Shown: positions 4,412 through 47,432 of the stretch, one piece after another
How positions within the stretch are numbered: the first letter of the stretch is position 1
How the letters are laid out: each line of letters begins with the position of its first letter
NCBI RefSeq assembly: GCF_013167455.1
Contig: NZ_CP038330.1
Source: Escherichia coli O157:H7
GTDB taxonomy: Bacteria; Pseudomonadota; Gammaproteobacteria; Enterobacterales; Enterobacteriaceae
Length of the DNA stretch: 64,000 bases
Direction: 5' to 3' (one strand)
Notes under the pieces: generated by a model
Told to the model about the DNA's origin: nothing
What the model saw: the letters and a program-made list of their open reading frames with translations, nothing else
Databases searched by the model: none
Made by a program: the position numbers and the translations under genes

Positions 4412-4618
4412 CTATCTAACTATTAGACAAAACATCCCTTTTTCAATTTCTGTCTCTCTCGCCTCATGGGCCAATACAATATCCGCGATAACACGAATAT
4501 TCCCTTCATAGTTGCGAATGGCCGCATCCCGCATCGTGTCTAAAGTGTCCTGACACTTCGCTCGCCTGAATTTAACGAGCCAACTTTGCCGATCTATCTT
4601 GTCCACACCAAATCCCAT
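4412..4618 (-). CDS. hypothetical protein (68 aa)
   Basis: ORF packed between flanking operon genes. Confidence 0.4.
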   Translation of the reverse strand: MGFGVDKIDRQSWLVKFRRAKCQDTLDTMRDAAIRNYEGNIRVIADIVLAHEARETEIEKGMFCLIVR

Positions 4619-5236
4619 TCAGCGAACCATGTATCCAGCTTCTTTTGCCGCAGCATCAAGCTCGGAGGAAAAGTTAACGTCGGACTTTTCTGCCGCGTTA
4701 TAGAGGGCTCCACACTTGGGCCATGAGCGCCCTACCAGTTTCATCGCCAACGCATCCGCCAGCATTTCTCGGATCTGTGTTTCAGCCTCACCAAAATCGG
4801 CTAGAGTTTCGTCTATGCCCGACTCTTCCATCAGCTCGATGAGCTGAGGTTGTTTGAGCCAGACGCCTGTTTGCATTTCCAACTGGTCTCTTGCATCTGC
4901 CACCAATTGGCGTTCAAGGGTGACGCCATTTACGGTCTTAACAAATTGCTTTGGCTGACGCTTTACCTTTTTTGGTCTGGACACATCAGAGATAACCGTC
5001 ACCGGCTTCCCACGCAGTTCACGCGGCAACGGTCCACTTAGCCCCAGAACTAAGCGACGAGCGTACTCATGCTCGTATGGTTTCAACCCTCGACCTTCAC
5101 GGTACATCTCAGTATCCACCAGCAGATCACCGCGCAGCCTCGCGTTTTTCCGCACTTGTTCGGACAAGACCGATTTGCCCTTCCCGCTGGCTCCCATTAC
5201 GAGCGAGTGAGATTCTACTTTGTTATCAAAAAACAT
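4619..5236 (-). CDS. P-loop NTPase / kinase-like protein
   Basis: Walker A motif GASGKGKS near N-terminus followed by DLLVD. Confidence 0.55.
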   Translation of the reverse strand: MFFDNKVESHSLVMGASGKGKSVLSEQVRKNARLRGDLLVDTEMYREGRGLKPYEHEYARRLVLGLSGPLPRELRGKPVTVISDVSRPKKVKRQPKQFVKTVNGVTLERQLVADARDQLEMQTGVWLKQPQLIELMEESGIDETLADFGEAETQIREMLADALAMKLVGRSWPKCGALYNAAEKSDVNFSSELDAAAKEAGYMVR

Positions 5237-5291
5237 AATTCCGCCCCCAAAGAGGTGTTGCTATAAAACATGGTTTGAACATCTGGCGCTG

Positions 5292-5948
5292 TTATTGCGC
5301 CCACCGATACTCTGGGCAACGCACTCTGTTGTGGCCGCTTTTCCCTTTGCTATTGGTGATGTCATCTTCATTCTTCGCAGCCCCCAGCTTACTCAGTATT
5401 TCAGCTTTTGTGGCGCGATGACCGCGTATTAAAAGAGCATTCAGCAGGTATCCAGTGAACACCTCTGTACTCGGCATACGGTCAAGCAACTCAACATACT
5501 GCTCATCCGTCAAATCATGGATCTCACAATATTTTTCCACCGCCTTTTCGTAGGCTTCTGCGTAGCCATGAGTGGAAATCCTGAAAACAATATCCCCATT
5601 GCCGTAGCCTGGCTTTGTGACGAGAAAACAAGGTGCGAAGTAGGTTCTCTTCACCCCCATCCGGCTCCGGTTCTCGATACTGATATAAGCCCTCAGCCCC
5701 TCAGCAATGATATTTGGCCCGGAGTTGCGTCGCCGCTTACAAGTCTTATTCTGACGCTTCACCTCTTCTGCCTCAGCTTCCCACTTTCGGTCCAAGCTGT
5801 AGGCCAGCCGGTGAGCTGTTGCGTAGGAATACTCTCTCAAGGAGAAGTATTCCTGCCGGTAATCATCCGCCACCCCAACTGTTCGTGCGACACGGAACCC
5901 GACGAAACCGGCGTCATGGGTTCCCTCGCCGTAGTAAATGACTGCCAT
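5292..5948 (-). CDS. hypothetical protein (218 aa)
   Basis: Start overlaps the stop of the upstream methyltransferase-like gene (translational coupling). Confidence 0.5.
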   Translation of the reverse strand: MAVIYYGEGTHDAGFVGFRVARTVGVADDYRQEYFSLREYSYATAHRLAYSLDRKWEAEAEEVKRQNKTCKRRRNSGPNIIAEGLRAYISIENRSRMGVKRTYFAPCFLVTKPGYGNGDIVFRISTHGYAEAYEKAVEKYCEIHDLTDEQYVELLDRMPSTEVFTGYLLNALLIRGHRATKAEILSKLGAAKNEDDITNSKGKSGHNRVRCPEYRWAQ

Positions 5949-7375
5949 TATTTACCTTCCTTACTTCTGATACCGTGCTGCACCACGGTATGGCGACCGC
6001 AATTCACATTCAGGTGATCCCGAACTGCGGCCATGACCGCTGAATGCAATCTGTAATCCACACTCTGCCCAAGTGTTTCTGTCGCTTGTTCTTTTGCCAT
6101 CCACGAAATATCAAAGCTATCAGGTATCGACATCAACTCCTGAACCAGATCGACCGATGGCTTGTAAATGCGGCCACCGTCTTGGATGTACACTGCATCC
6201 TTTACCCCACGATCCTGAGACTTGAGGATGGTCGGGCAACTGGTGCTTTCTCTCGTCAAGAACGCAGGCATCCTGCGAGAAGTTGACTCTCTGGCCTGAA
6301 TTGACTTCAACGCTGTGACGTCTGCACAATCCCCGAGGTGCTTCTCGATCACCGGCCACAATCGTCCACCAGCTCTCTGCTCAGGTTTCGGTGGAACGAA
6401 CCCAGGGAAGACCGACGCCACCATGTAATAGCGTTCTCGCCCCTGGTACGCGCCGAAATCCAGACCGTTCAAGACCATCTCAGTGAGGAAGTACCCCATC
6501 CGCCGCAGTGTCGTTCCCATCATCGCCCCGGCTCCGGATGCTTTGAAGTTCGGGACGTTTTCCACCAGCACGACGGCAGGGTTCACGACCTCGATCTGTT
6601 TTAGTGCCGGGTAAACCATGTCGAGCATGGTGGAGAGATCTTCAAGAGAACGCTCTTTGTCCCTTGGACTTTTGGCGTTTGAGTGGTCATCACACCCCAA
6701 CGAGTAATGGGCCAAACCAATTGGTGGGCACTCCGCCAGCAAGGCTCCAAGGCGATCCAGCTCCAGGTGATGAATGTCTTCATTCAGCAGGATACGCGGG
6801 GAGCTGTTCACCAGCGTATTGAGCGCATGTACTTCACTCAGGTTCCGCCCGGATGCTCTGTCTCTGGCTTCAACTGGACGATGTTCCAAAACAATCTCAG
6901 CCTTCCAGCCAAGCGATTCCATAACATGAATGTCTACCCCGCCAGTCAATGCCACAAAGGCACGGAAAGGGCTGGTTTTTCTGAACCGATCAGCAATGGC
7001 AAAGGCTCTGTTTGCGACGGGAGTGAAGACTACTCGACCTTTTCGCATTTCGACGTGGAAACGCTCTGTATAGCGAGGGAAGCACTTATCTATGAGCCCT
7101 TGTCCAGAAAACTCAATAACGGTTTCCAGCGGGTTGTTGGAGCGACTCTTTGGTTGATACCGGCGCTGATAAACCTGGTGTGTCTGTAGTTCATCGGTCG
7201 CTGGGATCACCGAAAAACCGCCCATCCCCTCCCCTGGCTCAACGGCGATGCCCATACCTGGCTTGAACCCCATAACATCCAAAAAGTTGGACGAAACCCT
7301 AACCTTGCGTTTATCGCCTACTCGATTGAACGCAAGTTGTTTGGTTACTACGGAGGGGGAGACGATCGGTAACAT
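5948..7375 (-). CDS. DNA cytosine-5 methyltransferase-like protein, divergent
   Basis: 475 aa; motif I-like EFSGQG, motif VI VVLVENVPNF, motif VIII-like QGRERYYMV, motif X-like GQSV; canonical PCQ catalytic motif not found (closest SLGCDDHS). Confidence 0.5.
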   Translation of the reverse strand: MLPIVSPSVVTKQLAFNRVGDKRKVRVSSNFLDVMGFKPGMGIAVEPGEGMGGFSVIPATDELQTHQVYQRRYQPKSRSNNPLETVIEFSGQGLIDKCFPRYTERFHVEMRKGRVVFTPVANRAFAIADRFRKTSPFRAFVALTGGVDIHVMESLGWKAEIVLEHRPVEARDRASGRNLSEVHALNTLVNSSPRILLNEDIHHLELDRLGALLAECPPIGLAHYSLGCDDHSNAKSPRDKERSLEDLSTMLDMVYPALKQIEVVNPAVVLVENVPNFKASGAGAMMGTTLRRMGYFLTEMVLNGLDFGAYQGRERYYMVASVFPGFVPPKPEQRAGGRLWPVIEKHLGDCADVTALKSIQARESTSRRMPAFLTRESTSCPTILKSQDRGVKDAVYIQDGGRIYKPSVDLVQELMSIPDSFDISWMAKEQATETLGQSVDYRLHSAVMAAVRDHLNVNCGRHTVVQHGIRSKEGK

Positions 7376-10178: not shown

Positions 10179-10194
10179 CTTTCACATGTGAAAG
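10179..10194. promoter_or_regulatory. 16-bp palindrome CTTTCACATGTGAAAG (copy 1 of 5)
   Basis: Perfect palindrome in the divergent intergenic region; identical copies at 13594, 44203 (core), 50310, 58351. Confidence 0.6.
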
Positions 10195-13593: not shown

Positions 13594-13638
13594 CTTTCAC
13601 ATGTGAAAGATTGTAGCGATCATAAAATGATACTGCAA
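13594..13638 (-). promoter_or_regulatory. parA promoter with overlapping palindromic operator (copy 2)
   Basis: Minus-strand -35 TTGCAG (13633-13638), 17-bp spacer, -10 TACAAT (13610-13615), then palindrome CTTTCACATGTGAAAG (13594-13609) at the predicted start site. Confidence 0.6.
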
Positions 13639-36420: not shown

Positions 36421-39400
36421 ATGAGATCGAGACCTTCCCTTTTACTGATGCGAAACCTGCGGTCATTGGCCGTTGTGGTGCTCGCAACTTTGCCATGCGT
36501 TGCTTTTGCACAATGGCGGGTTGTAGCCGTGAGCACCGAAGTAGACAAAATGCGCTTCAACACCATCATAGACGCGCATTCCTTCATGAAGAATTATCGC
36601 TCTGGTGAGGAGCAAGGGAAGGGAACGCCAGTTGGGGATGCGCTTTATCCGGTTGCCAGTTATGGTGATGGCCGTTATGTCTCCAGGATCTGTTTTAAGT
36701 ATCTAGGTGCTACTGGCGATTATGACCCCACTACCTGCACTGGCGACCCAGCTACGGTCTACTGGCGCTCAACCTATGTTCTGCCGGGTGAGATGGATAA
36801 AACACCGTTCCTGGACAGGGATCTCGGCTTACCAACAACGACCATGTGTGTAGGGAACCCTATCCATCTTGGCACCGGCAACAAGTTCCAGGCTGAACTG
36901 GATTATCAAAGCGGAGGCTCCGACCCTTTCACATTCACCAGATACTACAATAGCCACCTTCCTGATGAAGAGCTCGGCGGCTGGCGGCATACCTACTCGC
37001 GGAGCGTCGAGGTCAACGCCTCGAAGTACGGTGAGAACATGGTTGTCCTGCACCGGCCAGAAGGGCAACAACTCGCGTTCTACAACTCGTCCTCTGTCTG
37101 GGTGCCAACATGGAAAACCGATGATACCTTGACGAAGGATGCTACCGGCTGGCGCTACACTCAATCTGACGGGGTAGTCGAGGCCTATGATGAAACCGGA
37201 CGACTGACCGGCATCGAGAAGCCCAACGGCAATCACATCACCCTGAGCTATCTGAACGGAGAGCTATCCTCGATCACTGACGGCTTTGGCCGCACCATCC
37301 AGTTCCAGTATCAAGATGGCCGCATGGTCAGTGTCACCGATCCTGCTGGTGGCAGTATTCAGTACCAGTACAACAGCGCTGGCAAGCTGGCGGAAGTGAT
37401 CTACCAGGACAATACGAGCCGCAGCTATCTCTACGATGACCCGAATGCACCGGGTTTGCTCTCTGGGCTGGTGGACGAGAACGGCAACCGTTTCGCCACA
37501 TGGGGATATGATACTCAGGGGAGAGCGGTTCTAAGCGAACACGCCGGGGGCGCAGAGAAAACTCAGGTAAGCTACAACGCTGACGGAAGCGTCTCTGTCA
37601 CCAATGCCCTCGGCCACGTTCAGCGATACACCTACAGTCGCCACAATGGGATGCTCAAGCCTGATGTGGTTGAGGGTGCGCCGTGTACCGGCTTTGTGGG
37701 CGGCAAGGAAACCTACGTCTACGACAGCAAAGGCCTCGTCTCCAGCATTACTGACCGCGCTGGGCAGAAGCGCACGTTCACCCATAACGACCGGGGATTG
37801 GAAACCACCCAGATAGACCAGGACGGGGGTAAGGTTACGACCGACTGGCTTCCTTCCAAGTCGCTCCCGGCAAAAATCACAGAACCAACCAGGATCACTG
37901 AGCTCACCTACGACACTCATCTCCGGGTGATAAGCCGCAAGGTCACTGATCGCAGCTCGGGCGCTTCCCGGACATGGACCTACACCTATGCCCCTGTTGG
38001 TACAGGAAAGCCGAGCCTGTTGGCCTCGGTTGATGGTCCGCGCACCGACGTCAGCGATGTTACGACATTTGACTACGATGACCAGGGCAACCTGATCCGG
38101 ACAACGAACGCGCTGGGGCAGGTGACGCAGTTTGGTGACTACGACGCGAACGGTCGCGCCGGGACCATTCAGGGTGTCAATGGTGTAACCCAAACCCTCA
38201 CCTATGACGCCAGAGGAAGACTTGTCAGCTCCACTGGGCCAGAAGGAACCACGGTCTACAACTATGATGCTGTGGGCCTCCTGAGTTCGCTGACCAAGCC
38301 AAATGGTGCAACCGTCAGCTATGAGTACGACGCTGCACATCGGCTGGTGGCGGAAACAGATGCACAGGGCAACCGGCGCGAGCTTGAGCTCAATGACCTC
38401 GGGAACCCAGTAGAAGAGCGACTGCTCGATGCGCTGGGCCAGACCCGTTGGATAGAGCGCCGGATCTTCAACGAAATCGGCTGGCTCTCCAGTGTCTCCG
38501 ACGCCTATAGCAATCAGTCATCGTTTTCCTACGATGTGGTGGCAAACCTGATACAGGAGACCAGTCCCTCTGGTAACACACACTCCTACAAGTACGACGG
38601 CTTCCATCACCGGACACAAACGACCGATCCCCTCGGGAAGGTCACGCAGGTGCTCTACAAGGATACCGGCGATGTTTACCGTGTCTCCGACCCTCGTTCG
38701 CGCCTGACCTACTACAGCTACAACGGCTTTGGCGAAGTGACCCAGGTCCGGAGCCCGGACACCGGCACCACCGACATTACCTATGACGAAGCCGGTAACG
38801 TGGCAACGCGCAAAACGGCCAAGGGGCAAACCACAAGCTACAGCTATGACGCGCTGAACCGGATCATCGAAACCTCCAGCGATGTCGCTGGCGAATCGCC
38901 AATTCTGTACGGGTACGACGAAGCAACCTCACCATACGGCATAGGCCGCTTGACCTCAGTCGATGATGGCAACGGTGTCCGGAGATTTGGCTACACCCCC
39001 GAAGGATGGCTGGCTTACGAAACCTGGGAAACCCACGGGCAGAGCCTGACTACCCAGTACCAATACGATGGTGCAGGCCTCGTCACGAAGATCACGTATC
39101 CCAGTGGCCGTGAGGTCTCCTACACCCGTGACTCAGCCGGTGACGTCATCGAGGTGACAACGACACAAGCAGGCACCACAACAAACCTGGCAAGCCAGAT
39201 TGAGCGAGCGCCCTTTGGCCCCGTCACCAGTATGGTCAGAGGGAACGGCATTTCAGAAAGCCGCACTCTGGATCTCGATTACCGTGTCACCGGCATCGAC
39301 GCTGCTAGGGTGCATTCGCTGGTCTATCGGTACACGCCAGACTCGTTGATTTCAGCCATAGACGACAATCTCAGCTCATCAGTCAATCAGTCACTCGGTT

Positions 39401-40674
39401 ATGACGCGGTTGGCCGCATCACCTCTGCTGAGGGGATCTATGGCGTTTTGGGCTATGGCTATGACGCCACCGGCAACAGGACCTCGATCACGACCGATGG
39501 CCTGAGCCAAAGCTACACCATCAACTACATGAACAACTGGTTGGTGAAGGCCGGGCAAACCTCCAGAAGCTATGACGCCAATGGCAACCTGACGAAGCAG
39601 GGGGCGGATACCTTCACCTATGACAGCCAGAACCGGCTGGTGGCCGCAACGGTCGCGGGAGTGACTGTAAGCTACACATACAACCATCTGGATCAGCGTG
39701 TAACCAAGACCCTAAACGGGCATACCCGGCTGCTGGTTTACGACCTGGCAGGAAACCTCATCGAGGAGCTGGACGCGGCCACTGGAGACGTGCTGGCGGA
39801 GTACATCTGGCTCGATGGGACACCCTTGGGCTTTGTTCAGTCAGGACAGACCTACCAAGTCCACGTCGATCACCTGGGCACCCCGAAGGCACTGACCGAC
39901 GTCAGCGGCCAAGTCGTTTGGAAGGCGAGCTACAGCCCGTTCGGTAAGGCCAGCATCATCATCCAGGGGCCAACCTTCAACCTGCGATTCCCAGGACAGT
40001 ATTACGACGCGGAGACCGGGTTCCACTACAACTGGCGGCGTTACTACGACCCAGCGACCGGGCGGTACATTACCAGCGACCCTCTTGGCCTGATCGATGG
40101 AGTAAACACCTACGGGTATGTGCATGGAAACCCTATGTCCAATACCGACCCGACGGGTGAATTTGCGTTTGTTGGTGCAGGTATTGGAGCTGGGTTGGAG
40201 CTACTTAGCCAACTAATCGAAAATAATGGGAGTTGGAAATGTGTTAGTTGGTCAAAAGTTGGAATCGCCGGAGCGATTGGGGCTATAGGTGGCGGCTGGG
40301 CGTCAGGAGTTTTCAGACATGCCAGCTCCGGTAAATCGTGGTTCAAATTAAGCCAAAAATGGAGCAATGTCTCACCCAGAGTAAGGAAAGTTCAAGGGGT
40401 TCCACGAGGTAATGAGCTTCACCATTGGGCTATTCAGAGAAATGGCAAGTTTGGCAAATATGTTCCTGACTCAATAAAAAACCATCCTTGGAACTTGAAG
40501 TCCATTCCAAGAGATATTCACCAAAACATTCACGGCAATGGACCTACCCCATATAGCGCATTTGGTCGTTGGTGGCACGGGACGCCTGAATGGGCAAAAG
40601 TAGCTCAAGCCTCTCCTGTTAGTGGTGGTTTAGCTGATTCAATAAATGATGAGGGATGCGGTTGTGCAAATTGA
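36421..40674 (+). CDS. rhs: Rhs/YD-repeat polymorphic toxin with Sec signal peptide and C-terminal HNH-like (LHH-type) nuclease domain
   Basis: 1417 aa; signal peptide MRSRPSLLLMRNLRSLAVVVLATLPCVAFA; many YD repeats; Rhs core end DPLGLIDGVNTYGYVHGNPMSNTDPTGE; C-terminal ~170 aa with glycine-zipper segment and ELHHW...HPWN...HQNIHG. Confidence 0.9.
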   Translation: MRSRPSLLLMRNLRSLAVVVLATLPCVAFAQWRVVAVSTEVDKMRFNTIIDAHSFMKNYRSGEEQGKGTPVGDALYPVASYGDGRYVSRICFKYLGATGDYDPTTCTGDPATVYWRSTYVLPGEMDKTPFLDRDLGLPTTTMCVGNPIHLGTGNKFQAELDYQSGGSDPFTFTRYYNSHLPDEELGGWRHTYSRSVEVNASKYGENMVVLHRPEGQQLAFYNSSSVWVPTWKTDDTLTKDATGWRYTQSDGVVEAYDETGRLTGIEKPNGNHITLSYLNGELSSITDGFGRTIQFQYQDGRMVSVTDPAGGSIQYQYNSAGKLAEVIYQDNTSRSYLYDDPNAPGLLSGLVDENGNRFATWGYDTQGRAVLSEHAGGAEKTQVSYNADGSVSVTNALGHVQRYTYSRHNGMLKPDVVEGAPCTGFVGGKETYVYDSKGLVSSITDRAGQKRTFTHNDRGLETTQIDQDGGKVTTDWLPSKSLPAKITEPTRITELTYDTHLRVISRKVTDRSSGASRTWTYTYAPVGTGKPSLLASVDGPRTDVSDVTTFDYDDQGNLIRTTNALGQVTQFGDYDANGRAGTIQGVNGVTQTLTYDARGRLVSSTGPEGTTVYNYDAVGLLSSLTKPNGATVSYEYDAAHRLVAETDAQGNRRELELNDLGNPVEERLLDALGQTRWIERRIFNEIGWLSSVSDAYSNQSSFSYDVVANLIQETSPSGNTHSYKYDGFHHRTQTTDPLGKVTQVLYKDTGDVYRVSDPRSRLTYYSYNGFGEVTQVRSPDTGTTDITYDEAGNVATRKTAKGQTTSYSYDALNRIIETSSDVAGESPILYGYDEATSPYGIGRLTSVDDGNGVRRFGYTPEGWLAYETWETHGQSLTTQYQYDGAGLVTKITYPSGREVSYTRDSAGDVIEVTTTQAGTTTNLASQIERAPFGPVTSMVRGNGISESRTLDLDYRVTGIDAARVHSLVYRYTPDSLISAIDDNLSSSVNQSLGYDAVGRITSAEGIYGVLGYGYDATGNRTSITTDGLSQSYTINYMNNWLVKAGQTSRSYDANGNLTKQGADTFTYDSQNRLVAATVAGVTVSYTYNHLDQRVTKTLNGHTRLLVYDLAGNLIEELDAATGDVLAEYIWLDGTPLGFVQSGQTYQVHVDHLGTPKALTDVSGQVVWKASYSPFGKASIIIQGPTFNLRFPGQYYDAETGFHYNWRRYYDPATGRYITSDPLGLIDGVNTYGYVHGNPMSNTDPTGEFAFVGAGIGAGLELLSQLIENNGSWKCVSWSKVGIAGAIGAIGGGWASGVFRHASSGKSWFKLSQKWSNVSPRVRKVQGVPRGNELHHWAIQRNGKFGKYVPDSIKNHPWNLKSIPRDIHQNIHGNGPTPYSAFGRWWHGTPEWAKVAQASPVSGGLADSINDEGCGCAN

Positions 40675-41086
40675 ATTTCCAGCGCTGCTTGTGAGCAGCA
40701 AGAAAAGGTCGCTCTTCGTAGTGGCATCAGAATCCGAGTTCGGGAAATGTACTATTCAGTCTTTGAGGAACGGTTATTTTGAGCTGATGGACATTTATGA
40801 TTCGGAAGGTCGTCACTACAAAATAGACGAGGTTGCGAGCTACAAGCCGCTAAGTCCATTCTGGTACTGGCCTGTAGAAATTGTGATGTATGGTTCTCGA
40901 CTGTTTAAGGCTAATTTCAATGCTGTTCTTATCTCTAATCTGGATTGCAAGGAGTTAAAATCTGAACTTTGTGATTTGGCTAAAAAGTACAGAAGTAATT
41001 TGGATTCCGGCGTCGGAATTGAAAAGATTATGGAGGAAATGGAGTCTGCCAGAACAATTAAAGAATTGATAAAGGTTTTTGGCTAG
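40646..41086 (+). CDS. putative cognate immunity protein for the Rhs C-terminal toxin (start uncertain)
   Basis: ORF overlapping the rhs stop, typical toxin-immunity arrangement; no known domain recognised. Confidence 0.5.
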   Translation: MMRDAVVQIEFPALLVSSKKRSLFVVASESEFGKCTIQSLRNGYFELMDIYDSEGRHYKIDEVASYKPLSPFWYWPVEIVMYGSRLFKANFNAVLISNLDCKELKSELCDLAKKYRSNLDSGVGIEKIMEEMESARTIKELIKVFG

Positions 41087-41742: not shown

Positions 41743-42387
41743 AATGGGGATGATGTTACGTTCGTGGACGTTATTTTCACTCGGGATATGTAACGTTGAA
41801 AAAGGCGTACCGACAAGAGAGTGGTCACATAGCTCTCCATAATAGATGAGCGACAAAATCTCTTGCTCGTTGATTTTTCCCACCTTAAAAAGGTAATTGA
41901 TTATTGCTGTATCCAGTAGGTCGTGACACCCATTAAGCAGATCCACGATATTGGCCGCAGCTTCATTTTCCTCTCCGTCATCTCGACCGGCTAATACTGA
42001 TTCAACCCAAGCCTCAAGGCTCGGATGTCCCTCAGCGAGCTCTATTTGACGGCACTCGTTCTCGATCAACCCTGTGATTGCTTCGTTGAGCGTTCCGCCA
42101 TAAGTCGGCATGTTGAGAACAACTCCAAATCCGGGGATTTCTTTTTGGATTGGCTTCGCATCCTTGGGAGCTGATTTCAGCCACAGGAAAAACCAGATCC
42201 CAGAGCTTATGTCTTCCGGCTTGACCTGGTTGGCCGCAAGGAATTTGGAAACCTCGTTACAGATGATGCCATCTGGCGCTGCCATCTCGTAAATACCCGC
42301 CATCAGATCTTCAAGGCTCTTATACATATTATCTCTCGCACCTGTACATGATGTTTTCACTATCGTTGTTAAGCGTTTTTTCAGCAA
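41725..42387 (-). CDS. hypothetical protein (start may be internal Met at 42327)
   Basis: 220-aa ORF; no motif recognised. Confidence 0.45.
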   Translation of the reverse strand: MLKKRLTTIVKTSCTGARDNMYKSLEDLMAGIYEMAAPDGIICNEVSKFLAANQVKPEDISSGIWFFLWLKSAPKDAKPIQKEIPGFGVVLNMPTYGGTLNEAITGLIENECRQIELAEGHPSLEAWVESVLAGRDDGEENEAAANIVDLLNGCHDLLDTAIINYLFKVGKINEQEILSLIYYGELCDHSLVGTPFSTLHIPSENNVHERNIIPIKKGAS

Positions 42388-42433
42388 GTATGTTCCAGCG
42401 AGACATCTTATACCATTCCATCTAAATCTGTAA

Positions 42434-42485
42434 AATTACCGTATTACCGTATTACCGTATTACCGTAATTATGATAATTACGGTA
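42434..42485. repeat. 4x ATTACCGT tandem repeat plus 15-bp palindrome TAATTATGATAATTA
   Basis: In the divergent intergenic region; the same palindrome recurs at 47386-47400. Confidence 0.6.
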
Positions 42486-42601
42486 AATAAATTTAAGTTC
42501 TTCTTGCTGTTGTTCTACTTATTAAAATGTATCTTTGAAAAAGTAGAGTTTTTGGAATAGGATAGGTGGTGCTGAATGCCCACTTTTTACAAGGAGCGCG
42601 A

Positions 42602-42886
42602 CCAGTGATTTTTGATGTAAGAGCGACCTTTGAAGTGGCACTCCAGACGGACACCCACCTGGTACTTATCGATCTGGATCAGGGAGCATCAGTTACGAAC
42701 GATGCTGATGCAGTGATCGCCTGGTTGGCCGCAAACCTCGAAGGTGGAATTGGAAAACGTAAGGTGTACTACCGGGACACCGATGGACGCTTTGATGAGC
42801 TCAAGGTTAATGCCGGTGCTTTTGCCGGATTTGCACCTTGTAGCGAAGGCCAGCAGACCACCTTGGCTGGGATGCTCGGCCAGTAA
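42602..42886 (+). CDS. hypothetical protein
   Basis: GTG at 42602 with AAGGAG 8 bp upstream (track start 42566); first gene of a six-gene same-strand cluster. Confidence 0.4.
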   Translation, partial: PVIFDVRATFEVALQTDTHLVLIDLDQGASVTNDADAVIAWLAANLEGGIGKRKVYYRDTDGRFDELKVNAGAFAGFAPCSEGQQTTLAGMLGQ

Positions 42887-42904
42887 CTTTGTGTGGAGAA
42901 CTCG

Positions 42905-43192
42905 ATGTTAAACAAAAACAAATTTGAGAAAGTTTTAAAGAGAATCCTCGATAAGAACTTTGAGCGCTGCTCTATTTGCAGGAAACCATTCCCTGGACCG
43001 TGCCATACTTTTGCTGGTTTGGATTCGGACAATAAAGTTCAGAACGTAGGTTCTTGCTGTCGGACCAGTATTGTGGACTTGCGGCATGGAGGTGTGTATA
43101 CGACCGCTCCTGTAGATACTCAAGAGGGGCAAAGTCAGGCGCGTGAGCTACTCGCAACACATCCTTGTAAGGGGATGATGGGACATGCTTAG
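42905..43192 (+). CDS. hypothetical Cys-rich protein
   Basis: ATG at 42905 with GGAG RBS; CSICRKPF...GSCCRTS. Confidence 0.4.
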   Translation: MLNKNKFEKVLKRILDKNFERCSICRKPFPGPCHTFAGLDSDNKVQNVGSCCRTSIVDLRHGGVYTTAPVDTQEGQSQARELLATHPCKGMMGHA

Positions 43193-43721
43193 CAAAAAAG
43201 TCTTTTTCATTAGTCAAGCGGAGGCCGAAAGACTGGAGCCGGTTCCCGGTGCGGCCATGATCTCCATAACTGACCCAGACAAGTCCCCTGCCGCTCTCGG
43301 ACAGTGGGGGCAGTTGTACCGCGATAGCTTCTATGACGGCGGCTATTCTGAGAACACCATCCACACGATGAAGGCAGCGTTCCGGATGAATTACGCCTCT
43401 TACATTGACTCATCCCAGGCTGAAAAGCTGTCCACCTTCCTGGATGGATTGGTTGGTAGCGGTATCGATCAGATCTTCGTTCATTGCTATTACGGAGAAT
43501 CCAGAAGTGGCGCGGTAGCGCTGTACCTCCAGAACAAACATGGATTCACTCCGAATAAGCCGATCACCAAGCCCAACCGAACAGTTTACGAATTGCTGTG
43601 CAATCCAACCAAGTTTGAACCACTGATGCAAAGCTACGAAACGCAACATATGGAGGAGGAACTACCTCTTCACCTCAAAATATGGGATTTTCTTCTCGTT
43701 GCGGTCGGGCTTAGGAGGTAA
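43185..43721 (+). CDS. protein-tyrosine / dual-specificity phosphatase-like protein
   Basis: CX5R signature VHCYYGESRSG; stop overlaps the RBS of the integrase gene. Confidence 0.5.
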   Translation: MLSKKVFFISQAEAERLEPVPGAAMISITDPDKSPAALGQWGQLYRDSFYDGGYSENTIHTMKAAFRMNYASYIDSSQAEKLSTFLDGLVGSGIDQIFVHCYYGESRSGAVALYLQNKHGFTPNKPITKPNRTVYELLCNPTKFEPLMQSYETQHMEEELPLHLKIWDFLLVAVGLRR

Positions 43722-43723
43722 CT

Positions 43724-44734
43724 TTGCACGACACAAACAATGACAAGGAAGAGCTAGTTTCACATGCGAAAGTAAATGTTCCGGCAGAACAAAGCATTCG
43801 CGGTGAACTGTTGCCGTCATCGAGCTCGCTCCGGAACATCCAGGACAACCCCGCCGTCGCCTATCTGGTGAGCCTCGGGTCAAAGCGAAGCAGGCAGACC
43901 ATGAGCTCATTCCTCAACATTGTCGCCAAGATGATCGGGTTTCAGAACCTTCGTGACTGTGCATGGAGCTCAATGAGGCGGCACCACATATTGGCGGTGC
44001 TGGAAATGCTGGGGGATGCAGGGAAGGCTCCGGCAACGATCAACACCTACCTGTCAGCGCTCAAAGGGGTGGCTCTTGAAGCCTGGACGATGAAGCAAAT
44101 TGATACGGATAGCTTCCAGCACATTAAGCAAGTCCGTTCAGTACGTGGATCTCGACTTCCTAAAGGGCGGGCACTTGAACGCCATGAGATTCGCAGCCTC
44201 TTTTTCACATGTGAAAGTGATTCAAGCGCCAAAGGGCTTCGGGATGCGGCCATTCTCGGGGTGCTCCTCGGGTGTGGCTTGCGCCGCTCGGAAATCGTTG
44301 CGCTGGACATGGGAAGCATGATCTACAAGGACCGCGCTCTCAAGGTTCTTGGCAAGGGCAACAAAGAGAGAATGGCGTATGTGCCTGGTGGCGCATGGAA
44401 AAGACTGGATAAGTGGGTTGAAGAGGTTCGAGGAACGCATGAAGGGCCTTTATTCCCGAGGATCAGGCGGTTTGATGATGTGACTGGAGAGCGGATGTCG
44501 GATCAGGCCATCTACCACATCTTGGAGACCAGAAGAGTTGAAGCCGGTCTGGAGATGTTTGCGCCCCATGACCTGCGACGCACCTTTGCCTCCTCGATGC
44601 TGGATAACGGTGAGGATATTGTGACCGTGAAGGACGCAATGGGCCACTCAAGCATTGCAACTACCCAGAAATATGACAGACGCGGCGATGAGCGTTTGAA
44701 GAGAGCGAGCCAACGCCTCGATATAGCGGATTAA
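43724..44734 (+). CDS. int: tyrosine site-specific recombinase (phage-integrase family)
   Basis: TTG start with AGGAGG RBS; C-terminal catalytic region HDLRRTFASSML...GHSSIATTQKY; contains a copy of the palindrome TTTCACATGTGAAAG at 44203-44217. Confidence 0.8.
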   Translation: MHDTNNDKEELVSHAKVNVPAEQSIRGELLPSSSSLRNIQDNPAVAYLVSLGSKRSRQTMSSFLNIVAKMIGFQNLRDCAWSSMRRHHILAVLEMLGDAGKAPATINTYLSALKGVALEAWTMKQIDTDSFQHIKQVRSVRGSRLPKGRALERHEIRSLFFTCESDSSAKGLRDAAILGVLLGCGLRRSEIVALDMGSMIYKDRALKVLGKGNKERMAYVPGGAWKRLDKWVEEVRGTHEGPLFPRIRRFDDVTGERMSDQAIYHILETRRVEAGLEMFAPHDLRRTFASSMLDNGEDIVTVKDAMGHSSIATTQKYDRRGDERLKRASQRLDIAD

Positions 44735-44738
44735 CAGC

Positions 44739-45608
44739 ATGAATGATGAAGAACTCGAACTTGCCAGAGCCGAAGCCATGAAAGCCGATAGGTGCTTTTC
44801 AAAAGGACGGCTCAGGGACGAATTTAGGATGAAGCCTAAGCCAGGAGTAGAGCCAGTTTCGTTCTACAAAAACGGGTATGGTGGCCAATTTGGAGTGTAC
44901 CGGATAGCAGATTGCCAACCAATGCGGAGAAGGGGTTGTTCACCGGCATCACAAAAGCAAATAAGGGCGCAATCCATCCTTTCGGTCAAGGCAAGAATGC
45001 GTAGCAACCTGGCAAAGGCCTCTGTCATGGCACAAAGGTGGGTCGCTCTGGAACCTCTGGTTCTCGATACCGAGACGACCGGACTTGGTGAAAGAGACCA
45101 GGTGATCGAGCTGGCTGTTACTGACATCAGAGGCGCGGTTCTCCTCTGCACCAGATTACGGCCAACCGTGGAAATAGACCCTCAGGCAATGGGTGTTCAT
45201 GGCATCACCGAGACTGAGCTGTCGAATGAGCCTACGTGGACTCAAGTTGCGCCAGCTCTCGCCCGGCTTTTGTCGGGCCGTCATCTGGTGATATTTAACT
45301 CCAGTTTCGACAGTAGGATGTTGAGGCAAACAGCCAGTGCATTTGGAGACCAACTCTCTTGGTGGCAAGAGCAGAACTGTCTGTGCGCGATGAAGCTGGC
45401 GGCTGATGCCTTTGGCTCAACCAACCGGCACGGCACAATCTCACTTGCGGATGCCACCTGCGAGGCAGGTGTGAGCTGGAAAGGTCGAGCCCATTCAGCA
45501 GCGACCGACGCTATTGCCACCGCCGACTTGGTGACAGAGATAGCCAAAGTCCAACGTGACCTCGTGGTCCAGCTCCAGGAGCTTCAAAGCAAAGGTAATT
45601 TGGAATGA
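44739..45608 (+). CDS. DEDDh 3'-5' exonuclease (DnaQ-like) with N-terminal extension
   Basis: Exo I motif VLDTETTGL, HLVIFNSSFD, Exo III HSAATDAIATADL. Confidence 0.75.
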   Translation: MNDEELELARAEAMKADRCFSKGRLRDEFRMKPKPGVEPVSFYKNGYGGQFGVYRIADCQPMRRRGCSPASQKQIRAQSILSVKARMRSNLAKASVMAQRWVALEPLVLDTETTGLGERDQVIELAVTDIRGAVLLCTRLRPTVEIDPQAMGVHGITETELSNEPTWTQVAPALARLLSGRHLVIFNSSFDSRMLRQTASAFGDQLSWWQEQNCLCAMKLAADAFGSTNRHGTISLADATCEAGVSWKGRAHSAATDAIATADLVTEIAKVQRDLVVQLQELQSKGNLE

Positions 45609-46096
45609 CAGAACAATCCTACGGCGAAAGTCTCAAATTTTTCTCAGACTGGCAGAAGGACCCCGCGAAACGCACCGGCCTGAATGTGCAACACACGCTA
45701 ACCAGAGGTGAATATCCTACGGTCAGCATCGAGATTGCGCCGATCAGGGCATCGGGGTCCAGCCCAGACTGGAAAAGCAAGATCACGGTGCAGCTCACTC
45801 GCGGCGAACTGACGGCGTTTTGCAGCGTTCTCTTTGGTTTGCGTAGCAAGGCTGAGGGTTCCTATCACGGCGACGCGAAGAATAAGAGCTTTGCGGTTTA
45901 CAACAACGGCAAGGCCGGTGTTGCGATCATCCTTAGTGAGCGAGGAAACCAGCTCCAGAATTTCATCAATGATGACGACCGAATGGAGCTCGCAGTCTTC
46001 GCAGTTCGCCAGCTTTCCAACGCATGGAAAGTTACCCCTTCTGATGCCATCGCGCTGCTACGCCAATCAGCGTGGATGGACCGAAATTTGTCCTAA
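45605..46096 (+). CDS. hypothetical protein (163 aa)
   Basis: Start overlaps the exonuclease stop (ATGA). Confidence 0.45.
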   Translation: MTEQSYGESLKFFSDWQKDPAKRTGLNVQHTLTRGEYPTVSIEIAPIRASGSSPDWKSKITVQLTRGELTAFCSVLFGLRSKAEGSYHGDAKNKSFAVYNNGKAGVAIILSERGNQLQNFINDDDRMELAVFAVRQLSNAWKVTPSDAIALLRQSAWMDRNLS

Positions 46097-46199
46097 TCGA
46101 GCAAATCTAGGCACTCTAAAAGTCGTCCTATAACCACAAAGTTAGACCATCATGCAAAGTGGGGTATAGAGGGTGCCAGCCCCACCCCAGCAGTCCCCC

Positions 46200-46292
46200 T
46201 CAGCCACATTTCTGGCTTGCCCCGCGCTTTTCTTCTTTCTCTCTTTTTCTCTCTTTTTCTCTCTCTTTCTCAATCTAATCTCACACACGAAG
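46200..46292. repeat. polypyrimidine CT-rich tract with TCTCTTTTTC repeats
   Basis: Strand-asymmetric low-complexity tract in an intergenic region. Confidence 0.5.
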
Positions 46293-46422
46293 GTCAAACA
46301 GGGCACCCGCCGACGCGAAGCGGAGGCGTATTCTTGCCCCTCCCCCTCGTTGCATGATGGTCTAAATCTGTCTACTATGTAACCAATGAACTGTTAGAAC
46401 AAACCCACACATAGGCGGCAGC

Positions 46423-47298
46423 ATGGCTAAAAACTTCATATCAGAACAATTCTCGGCCATGTGCCGCGACTTAACGAACCTGTCCTCTCTTATCAAACGA
46501 CTACCGCCACGGTACGCAAAAGTTGCGGCCATCCCTCCTACCGGAAAAGGAATGGAGAACGAGCCCGTCAACAAGATTGTCGTAACTGAACAAACTGGGC
46601 GCGAAGCTCTTGAGCTGGCAGCGCACAGCTACAGAGATCTTCACATCAACCCAGACTATTCGCAGAAGTCTGCCAGGCGCACCGTGGGGGTACTCTGGTT
46701 CTCCCCTTCCAGGATTGGTGTAGCTGACGAAATTGCGGCGACGGTTGAACGCATCAACGCGGCCAAAGCTGGTATCGAGGAGTTCATTATCTCGACGTAC
46801 CCCACCAGGCAAGAGAGGTTTGAAGCACTTCGAGCGGACTGCCCTGGTGTCATGACTCTCCACCTTTACAGACAAATTCGGTGCTATACCAATGGCGACA
46901 TCGACTCTATCCGCTTCACCTGGCAACGGAAGGACTCCTTGAAGAAGCCCGTAAAAGAGGAGCTTTTGCAACGCATCAGAGAGGAGCTGGAGCGATCTGG
47001 GCCAGACTATCAACTTCCCCTGGAGCAGCTTATCCAGAAGATCGCCAGCACCCCGGAGCCTTATCTCCGGGAGCGAAGGGAAGTAAAGGTTCAACCGGTG
47101 GCAAACGTCATGGCCGCAGGGGTACTCAAAACCGTTACCGCGCCAATGCCCCTGATCGTGCTCCAGGATAAGGATGTTCAGCTCAAATTGCTTCGTAACT
47201 TTGACGCCTCAGAACAACGCAAAACTCGATCTGATAAAGCGGCATCGGAAATCCTTGGCACCTTCGGTGGAGTCACTATCGAATCCTTCCCTGGATGA
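46423..47298 (+). CDS. hypothetical protein (291 aa)
   Basis: ORF with AGGCGG RBS; no motif recognised. Confidence 0.5.
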   Translation: MAKNFISEQFSAMCRDLTNLSSLIKRLPPRYAKVAAIPPTGKGMENEPVNKIVVTEQTGREALELAAHSYRDLHINPDYSQKSARRTVGVLWFSPSRIGVADEIAATVERINAAKAGIEEFIISTYPTRQERFEALRADCPGVMTLHLYRQIRCYTNGDIDSIRFTWQRKDSLKKPVKEELLQRIREELERSGPDYQLPLEQLIQKIASTPEPYLRERREVKVQPVANVMAAGVLKTVTAPMPLIVLQDKDVQLKLLRNFDASEQRKTRSDKAASEILGTFGGVTIESFPG

Positions 47299-47385
47299 AT
47301 CAGCGTGACCGCGTAACAAGGCTTTTCCGCAGCCGGAAGGGCTTTGTCCCACACAAACAATTCCAATCGACAGCAGCATGATATA

Positions 47386-47432
47386 TAATTATGATAATTA
47401 CCGTATTATCGTAATTATCGTAATTATCGTAA
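47386..47432. repeat. palindrome TAATTATGATAATTA followed by TCGTAATTA tandem repeats; probable kfrA operator
   Basis: Same 15-bp palindrome as at 42466; ~30-75 bp upstream of the kfrA start. Confidence 0.55.

Follow-up and report, generated by a model that had tools for sequence, protein, structure and literature searches.

Six tightly packed open reading frames (ORFs) ending at position 46096 of a 64,000-nucleotide stretch of Escherichia coli O157:H7 DNA (contig NZ_CP038330.1; hereafter the window) place a tyrosine recombinase gene between the genes for a phosphatase-like protein and a DEDDh exonuclease. What does this cluster do, and do its products work together? The original prediction, made from the letters alone, had proposed a functional coupling of the three proteins, as a DNA-processing or defence/anti-defence system or as a dimer-resolution unit. 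The window is backbone of an IncC (A/C2) plasmid; the 3.9 kb around the cluster matched more than 900 IncC plasmids at 100%, including pAR060302, pSN254 and peH4H-type records. The cluster genes correspond to vcrx132 and vcrx134-vcrx137 of plasmid pVCR94, together with one gene of 95 amino acids (aa) lacking annotation. We estimate at roughly 0.8 the probability that this vcrx132-vcrx137 cluster is a mosaic operon of the IncC backbone and no single machine, with a core consisting of the recombination site RecHS and the recombinase gene vcrx135. Among the readings offered before, the dimer-resolution unit fitted best.

RecHS lies directly upstream of the gene cluster

A 34-bp element was located directly upstream of the first cluster gene, at 42514-42547 on the plus strand. 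It reads TCTACTTATTAAAA-TGTATC-TTTGAAAAAGTAGA, that is, two imperfect 14-bp inverted arms (inverted repeat 2, IR2) separated by a 6-bp spacer, and this 14 + 6 + 14 bp arrangement is that of a recombinase core site, in which inverted arms flank a spacer of 6-8 bp. The primers used by Hegyi et al. (2017, Sci Rep 7:10595) mapped to 42328-42568 of the window; T1rev2, T1for4, recHSfor and T1rev (Supplementary Table 3 of that paper) fell within 42507-42568, and primer R55 T1for3 was placed at 42451-42473. The repeat geometry and the mapped primers together identified 42514-42547 as RecHS, the experimentally defined recombination site of A/C plasmids that acts independently of RecA (Hegyi et al. 2017). 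The published recombination proceeds in both directions, with cointegrates both formed and resolved, and a 56-bp fragment was enough when a whole plasmid served as the enzyme source. The enzyme is plasmid-encoded, and the recombinase was stated to be 'not yet identified' (Hegyi et al. 2017).

Further upstream, four tandem 8-bp repeats (ATTACCGT) run into a first inverted repeat (IR1), the whole spanning 42435-42486. IR1 itself (42460-42486) is a perfect 13-bp inverted repeat with a 1-nt spacer that ends 27 bp before IR2, and it was dispensable for RecHS recombination (Hegyi et al. 2017).

RecHS-like sites accompany vcrx135-type recombinases

The gene vcrx135 (43724-44734, plus strand) encodes a XerC/D-like tyrosine recombinase, and its TTG start with AGGAGG on the 5' side agreed with what had been predicted. 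The catalytic R-K-H-R-H-Y set is intact, with R187/R188, K211, H282, R285, H308 and Y317 invariant in 10 homologues. The protein belongs to the tyrosine recombinase superfamily (Phage_integrase) and matched the phrog_1 integrase family (5e-36) as well as XerD in the PDB (E 3.6e-21). The NCBIfam models of XerC and XerD (TIGR02224/TIGR02225) gave 151 bits (cut-off 335) and 134 bits (cut-off 330), respectively. In sequence terms, vcrx135 is Xer-like and no orthologue of XerC or XerD.

Matches to the recombinase occur in 1941 plasmid records. Homologues of vcrx135 were gathered from unrelated replicons and the DNA upstream of each was inspected, which gave 15 gene contexts. A RecHS-like 34-bp site was present upstream of the recombinase gene, and co-oriented with it, in 14 of these, the recombinase homologues being 59-82% identical. 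With the IncC locus of the window as the reference, the site and the recombinase were found together on pESI of Salmonella Infantis (recombinase 82%), the IncA plasmid pRA1 (80%), pKAM497_1 from Aeromonas (75%), a Marinobacterium contig (69%), the marine A/C-like plasmids L009-L012 (67%), in Marinobacter (66%), on the marine A/C-like contig L109 (64%), pESA3 from Cronobacter (IncFIB; 63%), the Pseudoalteromonas plasmid pPsKG3_1 (62%), in Oceanisphaera (62%), on the E. coli IncY plasmid p65 (61%), pPHDP70 and Vibrio plasmids (60%), and a contig of a metagenome-assembled genome, L018 (59%). The sites carried 0-6 mismatches, mostly in the spacer; in Oceanisphaera both arms were changed with the symmetry kept. 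The site lay 70-500 bp from the recombinase start in the absence of intervening intact genes, and as far as about 1.5 kb away in their presence. The examined loci of IncY and pESA3 hold the site and the recombinase alone.

A contig scan with the recombinase alignment returned almost only chromosomal XerC/D-type genes and was used as the negative control. In the resulting 79 loci (0.6 Mb) with more distant XerC/D-like recombinases, no RecHS-like match was detected at up to 8 mismatches (0/79).

The spacer took at least seven forms (TGTATC, TGTACC, TGACGC, TGGTGA, TGTCTA, TATATC and TGTTCG), while the arms were near-invariant in most loci. Constant arms around a variable spacer are the pattern expected for the core site of a tyrosine recombinase. 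The pESI-like plasmid (L005, NZ_CP103792) carries, at 4470-6011, RecHS with the IncC spacer and one arm mismatch, followed by the 82%-identical recombinase; solely decayed remnants of orf93 and of the phosphatase gene lie between the two. In pRA1 (L098, NC_012885) the site at 5752-5785 has intact arms and the spacer TGACGC, shared with pKAM497_1.

The co-occurrence of site and recombinase (14/15 contexts versus 0/79 controls), the intact catalytic set and the lack of another site-specific recombinase annotated on pAR060302 outside its resistance islands point to vcrx135 as the recombinase of RecHS, an assignment that is correlative, drawn from comparative genomics, and probably correct. No later naming of the RecHS recombinase was found in the searchable literature. 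The window site is the same DNA as the hot spot of Hegyi et al. (2017), with its RecA-independent, bidirectional reaction and plasmid-encoded enzyme. That study differs in leaving the recombinase unnamed and in not reporting the pairing of the site with one recombinase family on non-A/C replicons.

Likeness to known recombination modules

RecHS and vcrx135 would thus form a simple-site tyrosine-recombinase module comparable to Cre/loxP or ResD/rfsF, in which vcrx135 would bind both 14-bp arms and swap strands across the 6-bp spacer. Like Cre/loxP of P1 and ResD/rfsF of F, it has one short site with inverted arms and a spacer of 6-8 bp beside the recombinase gene on a low-copy replicon, and fusion and resolution both occur. 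It differs from Cre/loxP in that vcrx135 is XerC/D-like and Cre was not among its PDB sequence matches; the sequence of RecHS is presumably unrelated to that of loxP. XerC and XerD, acting at dif or cer, are the closest sequence relatives of vcrx135, and the 6-bp spacer is shared with that system. In contrast to it, vcrx135 scores far below the equivalog cut-offs given above, the cluster holds a single recombinase gene, the RecHS arms are near-identical with no distinct XerC and XerD arms, and the 56-bp RecHS fragment was active without accessory sequences. We infer that the likely role of the module is to keep the low-copy plasmid monomeric by multimer resolution. Fusion with any replicon whose site has the same spacer would be a by-product.

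The site lies at, and probably overlaps, the promoter of the operon. A consensus scan placed a sigma-70-like promoter at 42535-42563 on the plus strand; its -35 hexamer TTGAAA falls within the right RecHS arm, and 17 nt separate it from the -10 hexamer TAGGAT. Most of 11 aligned loci keep, at constant spacing, a TAnnnT-like hexamer and an invariant G, pESA3 and pPHDP70 being poor fits. The element is inferred to be the operon promoter. With the -35 hexamer inside the right arm and the -10 spacing kept, bound vcrx135 could act as a repressor of the operon that encodes it, in the manner of ResD of F.

The Whirly-fold protein is the most consistent neighbour of the recombinase

The last gene, vcrx137 (45605-46096, plus strand), encodes a protein with a Whirly fold (PC4-like). 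Its closest known counterparts are the Whirly, MRP1-MRP2 and PC4-like single-stranded nucleic-acid-binding folds, from which it differs in having no sequence-family match: no Pfam family, Whirly included, matched vcrx137 or any of 21 homologues. In AFDB50 there were 136 matches at E <= 0.001, and the 50 listed were bacterial or metagenomic and nearly all uncharacterised. Judging from the fold, vcrx137 probably binds single-stranded nucleic acid. Published deletion of vcrx137 left exclusion unaffected.

A recombinase of the vcrx135 clade was encoded within about 2.5 kb of the vcrx137 homologue in 11/11 other contexts examined, in most of them immediately adjacent and usually upstream. No other gene family accompanies this recombinase clade as consistently as that of vcrx137. 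The Whirly-fold protein would be the ancestral neighbour of the recombinase and may modulate recombination. A stronger version makes it a required or directional accessory factor of a two-component module: the protein might bind single-stranded or extruded RecHS, perhaps at conjugative entry, and the stand-alone enterobacterial copies of site and recombinase would be degenerate or host-assisted. The near-constant proximity, the nucleic-acid-binding fold type and the near-palindromic RecHS sequence, which can form a hairpin, speak for such a module. Against it, IncY, pESA3 and pESI have conserved the recombinase and the site without a vcrx137 homologue, and an exonuclease gene, hipBA or an opposite-strand ORF is tolerated between the recombinase and Whirly genes. 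We regard such a two-component module as very unlikely. A looser proposal, that the recombinase clade and its Whirly partner, in some lineages with the dual-specificity phosphatase (DUSP)-fold enzyme working on phosphotyrosyl-DNA or DNA ends, act on hairpin or single-stranded RecHS at conjugative entry and do not form a plain double-strand resolution system, is also improbable, if slightly less so.

The remaining genes are probably accessory cargo

The six ORFs were confirmed, all on the plus strand, and the tight packing with overlapping or abutting ends that had been described is real. From the first junction to the last, neighbouring genes are 18 nt apart, overlap by 8 nt, lie 2 nt and then 4 nt apart, and overlap by 4 nt (ATGA). 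No terminator-like sites were found in 42300-46500, and published RNA-seq of pVCR94 describes vcrx134-vcrx137 as a predicted, weakly expressed operon. Control of the operon by the transfer activator AcaCD was considered and rejected, as the published table has no upstream site for it. In pAR060302 the region is labelled hypothetical, hypothetical, tyrosine recombinase, 3'-5' exonuclease and hypothetical, and four of the six cluster proteins matched nothing in NCBIfam and PADLOC.

The first gene, orf93 (vcrx132; 42605-42886, plus strand), had been placed 3 nt too far upstream, at 42602, where there is no start codon; it starts with GTG at 42605, with AAGGAG 9 nt upstream. This small protein had no family match. 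Homologues 52-61% identical lie between the site and the recombinase on marine A/C-like plasmids; the gene is truncated in pESI and pRA1, and its ratio of nonsynonymous to synonymous substitution rates (dN/dS) was 0.35. The second, orf99 (42905-43192, plus strand), has an ATG start and encodes a Cys-rich protein of 95 aa. It is missing from the RefSeq and pVCR94 annotations, and in its place a 153-bp minus-strand gene, vcrx133, is annotated in pVCR94. No significant Pfam match was obtained for it. Plasmids of Photobacterium and Vibrio have, in the same place, an ORF 63% identical over 87 aa (range 59-63%), and dN/dS, computed with a 59%-identical homologue, was 0.12. The conservation at the same position in Vibrionaceae and the low dN/dS indicate that orf99 is a real gene.

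The phosphatase-like gene vcrx134 (43185-43721, plus strand) encodes 178 aa with VHCYYGESRSG at residues 99-109. The call made from this motif held: the HCxxGxSRS P-loop, of the HCX5R(S/T) type, was conserved in 23 homologues, with C101 nearly invariant and R107 and S108 invariant. The protein matched Pfam DSPc only weakly (E=0.007), some homologues have a precomputed PF00782 match, and the phage family phrog_5614 was matched at 4e-16. The AlphaFold2 model had a mean confidence (pLDDT) of 93.3, and in a Foldseek search of the PDB the top 50 matches were all DUSP/PTP-family chains, mostly with probability 0.9-1.0, at modest TM-scores of 0.31-0.45. The assignment as a DUSP-fold protein holds, which makes vcrx134 a putative phosphatase.

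In IncC, IncA, marine A/C-like and Vibrionaceae plasmids, a member of the small vcrx134 family separates the recombinase from the site. The family was also found with no recombinase nearby in four other mobile-element contexts: a neighbourhood of umuDC-like genes, a methylase/DUF2786 region, a position preceding parA/korB, and a PRTRC cluster. It is linked to the recombinase in some lineages only. In the marine A/C-like contig L109 (2069-2974), the phosphatase-like domain is C-terminal in a 301-aa ORF with about 125 extra N-terminal aa.

The exonuclease gene vcrx136 (44739-45608, plus strand) encodes a DEDDh 3'-5' exonuclease. Its residues D110, E112, D191, H252 and D257, read from the translation, make up the Exo I-III motifs with the H-x4-D form, and RNase_T (PF00929) was matched at 1.2e-16 over residues 107-264. 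The N-terminal extension, predicted at about 110 aa, was confirmed as a domain of about 105 aa that is conserved across the family. The DNA polymerase III epsilon models of NCBIfam gave 61 bits (cut-off 196) and 60 bits (cut-off 223), below the level of membership. Next to the recombinase, the gene was found in IncC only and was absent from all other recombinase loci examined. In IncA pRA1 and in pKAM497_1 its slot holds hipBA, and in the marine relatives the slot is empty. This hipBA toxin-antitoxin pair lies between the recombinase and Whirly-like genes of IncA-type plasmids at 7916-9484 in L098 and 6779-8338 in L008, and the slot resembles a hot spot for insertions.

A tblastn search with vcrx136 returned 3984 plasmid records, the majority without a vcrx135-type recombinase. 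Full-length members with no recombinase occur after yacAB in IncI plasmids and on a Pseudomonas megaplasmid. The IncI1/IncI-gamma gene downstream of yacAB is 50% identical to vcrx136 over 98% of the length, N-terminal domain included, but adjoins neither recombinase nor phosphatase. That the exonuclease might be paired with the gene following it was also considered and rejected, as the small ORFs downstream in IncI and Pseudomonas are related neither to vcrx137 nor to one another. By its distribution, vcrx136 is best described as a passenger, an IncC-specific insert.

These distributions bear on the idea of one DNA-processing or defence/anti-defence system made up of all six genes, in which the phosphatase and exonuclease would trim or dephosphorylate recombination intermediates or foreign DNA. 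Its attractions are the tight packing, the fact that every identifiable product acts or could act on nucleic acids, the recurring adjacency of phosphatase and recombinase in the IncA, IncC, marine A/C-like and Vibrionaceae plasmids, and the likeness of the exonuclease domain to PADLOC DEDDh modules. That likeness consisted of matches to the DEDDh and PDC-S48 models at the domain level only; PADLOC gave no system-level match, and none at all for the other five cluster proteins or the upstream vcrx131. Moreover, the exonuclease is in no non-IncC recombinase locus examined, hipBA taking its place in IncA, and its full-length family is widespread without a recombinase; the phosphatase-like family has recombinase-free members and a phage family, phrog_5614; and the recombinase and site occur alone on IncY and IncFIB plasmids. 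We consider a single system very unlikely. The coupling of recombinase, phosphatase and exonuclease fails because the linkage is not conserved. The original prediction had named unrelated families without conserved linkage as the outcome that would count against it: this was found for the exonuclease and in part for the phosphatase, and it does not describe the recombinase-site and recombinase-Whirly pairs.

In the mosaic operon that we favour, the other genes would be accessory cargo that built up on both sides of the recombinase gene: orf93, orf99 and the DUSP-fold gene as lineage-specific additions separating it from the promoter and site, and the exonuclease gene as an insertion just downstream, in the slot that holds hipBA in IncA.

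It is highly improbable that RecHS is served by a different plasmid-encoded enzyme and that vcrx135 has another use such as chromosomal integration or inversion: the pairing is known from comparison, one Whirly/recombinase locus lies on a 413-kb, possibly chromosomal contig and the published expression of vcrx135 is very low, but the site and the recombinase are carried jointly by unrelated replicons, no second site-specific recombinase is annotated on pAR060302 outside the resistance islands, the TnpR, IntI1 and serine recombinase of those islands have their own known sites, and RecHS lacks the arm-type repeats typical of an integrase attP, IR1 being dispensable.

Several observations weigh against the proposed module and mosaic. 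The link between vcrx135 and RecHS is comparative throughout. In the fifteenth context, L108, no site was detected in the 781 bp available upstream. The promoter match to the consensus is weak and the count of the promoter scan was no higher than in shuffled sequences, so the scan carries little weight on its own. The lineage-specific pairing of phosphatase and recombinase and the near-universal pairing of recombinase and Whirly protein allow accessory roles in recombination. Finally, 14 of 152 A/C plasmids were reported to be without RecHS (Hegyi et al. 2017). Supplementary Table 2 of that paper lists RecHS as missing in pRA1, where we found the spacer variant described above.

Other elements in and around the cluster

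The palindrome noted inside the recombinase gene was confirmed as the 14-bp TTTCACATGTGAAA at 44203-44216, with the conserved GT on the right flank present. It is identical to the 14-bp core published for the IncC parS sites, to which a KorB-like ParB binds (Muranyi et al. 2024). The sequence recurs in the window at 10180-10193, 13595-13608, 50311-50324 and 58352-58365, and a copy with one mismatch lies at 43758-43771, so that two copies are within the recombinase coding sequence. The five perfect copies and the near copy compare with 0.01 expected by chance. The palindrome is an IncC parS core with no role in recombination.

A CT-rich tract at 46200-46292 had been suggested as an example of where to look for the cognate recombination site. 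This candidate was rejected, the tract having no half-site similarity to RecHS, and the site is the one upstream of the cluster; Rfam returned nothing in the tract. The tract is bracketed by a 29-nt inverted repeat (46136-46164 and 46343-46371) with 86% complementarity and arms 178 nt apart, located just upstream of the Tus-like gene. The arms loosely resemble the Ter pattern (ATG.TG....TAAA) and could be an opposed Ter-like pair.

The motif TAATTACGGTAA, with its 8-bp ATTACCGT repeats, occurs at 42435-42486 upstream of RecHS and at 47385-47430 upstream of the KfrA-like gene, with 4 matches versus 0.08 expected. At the marine, Marinobacter and Marinobacterium loci, similar ACCGTAAT repeats lie 5' of the site; the IncY, pESA3 and pESI loci lack them. 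The motif may be an operator for an A/C-type regulator.

In pAR060302 the cluster is followed by genes for a Tus-like terminator protein, a KfrA-like DNA-binding protein, UvrD and traF/H/G, and it is preceded by an Rhs toxin gene. In the window, 36421-41086 upstream of the cluster encodes an Rhs-repeat protein of 1417 aa whose C-terminal tip is variable, followed by an overlapping ORF of 146 aa; the two look like a toxin-immunity pair.

Implications for IncC plasmids

The cluster is mostly ordinary, and its genes, the site and the parS motif were already known from the literature or annotation. New are the assignment of vcrx135 to RecHS, which is a modest inference, the pairing of the site with a vcrx135-type recombinase on numerous replicons outside the A/C group, the classes of spacer, that of pRA1 among them, and the folds. 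IncC plasmids are major carriers of multidrug resistance, and naming the enzyme of RecHS would close a gap that has been open since 2017.

Replicons bearing RecHS fuse with an IncC helper and are transferred at about one tenth of the helper frequency (Hegyi et al. 2017). Given this published fusion and transfer, and the presence of the same 34-bp site on unrelated replicons, IncC plasmids could fuse site-specifically with pESI, IncY and IncFIB plasmids of matching spacer and carry them to new hosts. The identity of the pESI spacer with that of IncC suggests that site-specific cointegration of these two plasmids may be possible, whereas the spacers TGACGC of IncA and TGTATC of IncC predict no fusion between IncA and IncC by RecHS. 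Fusion of an IncC plasmid with one of the unrelated replicons would offer a concrete way for hybrid resistance-virulence plasmids to arise.

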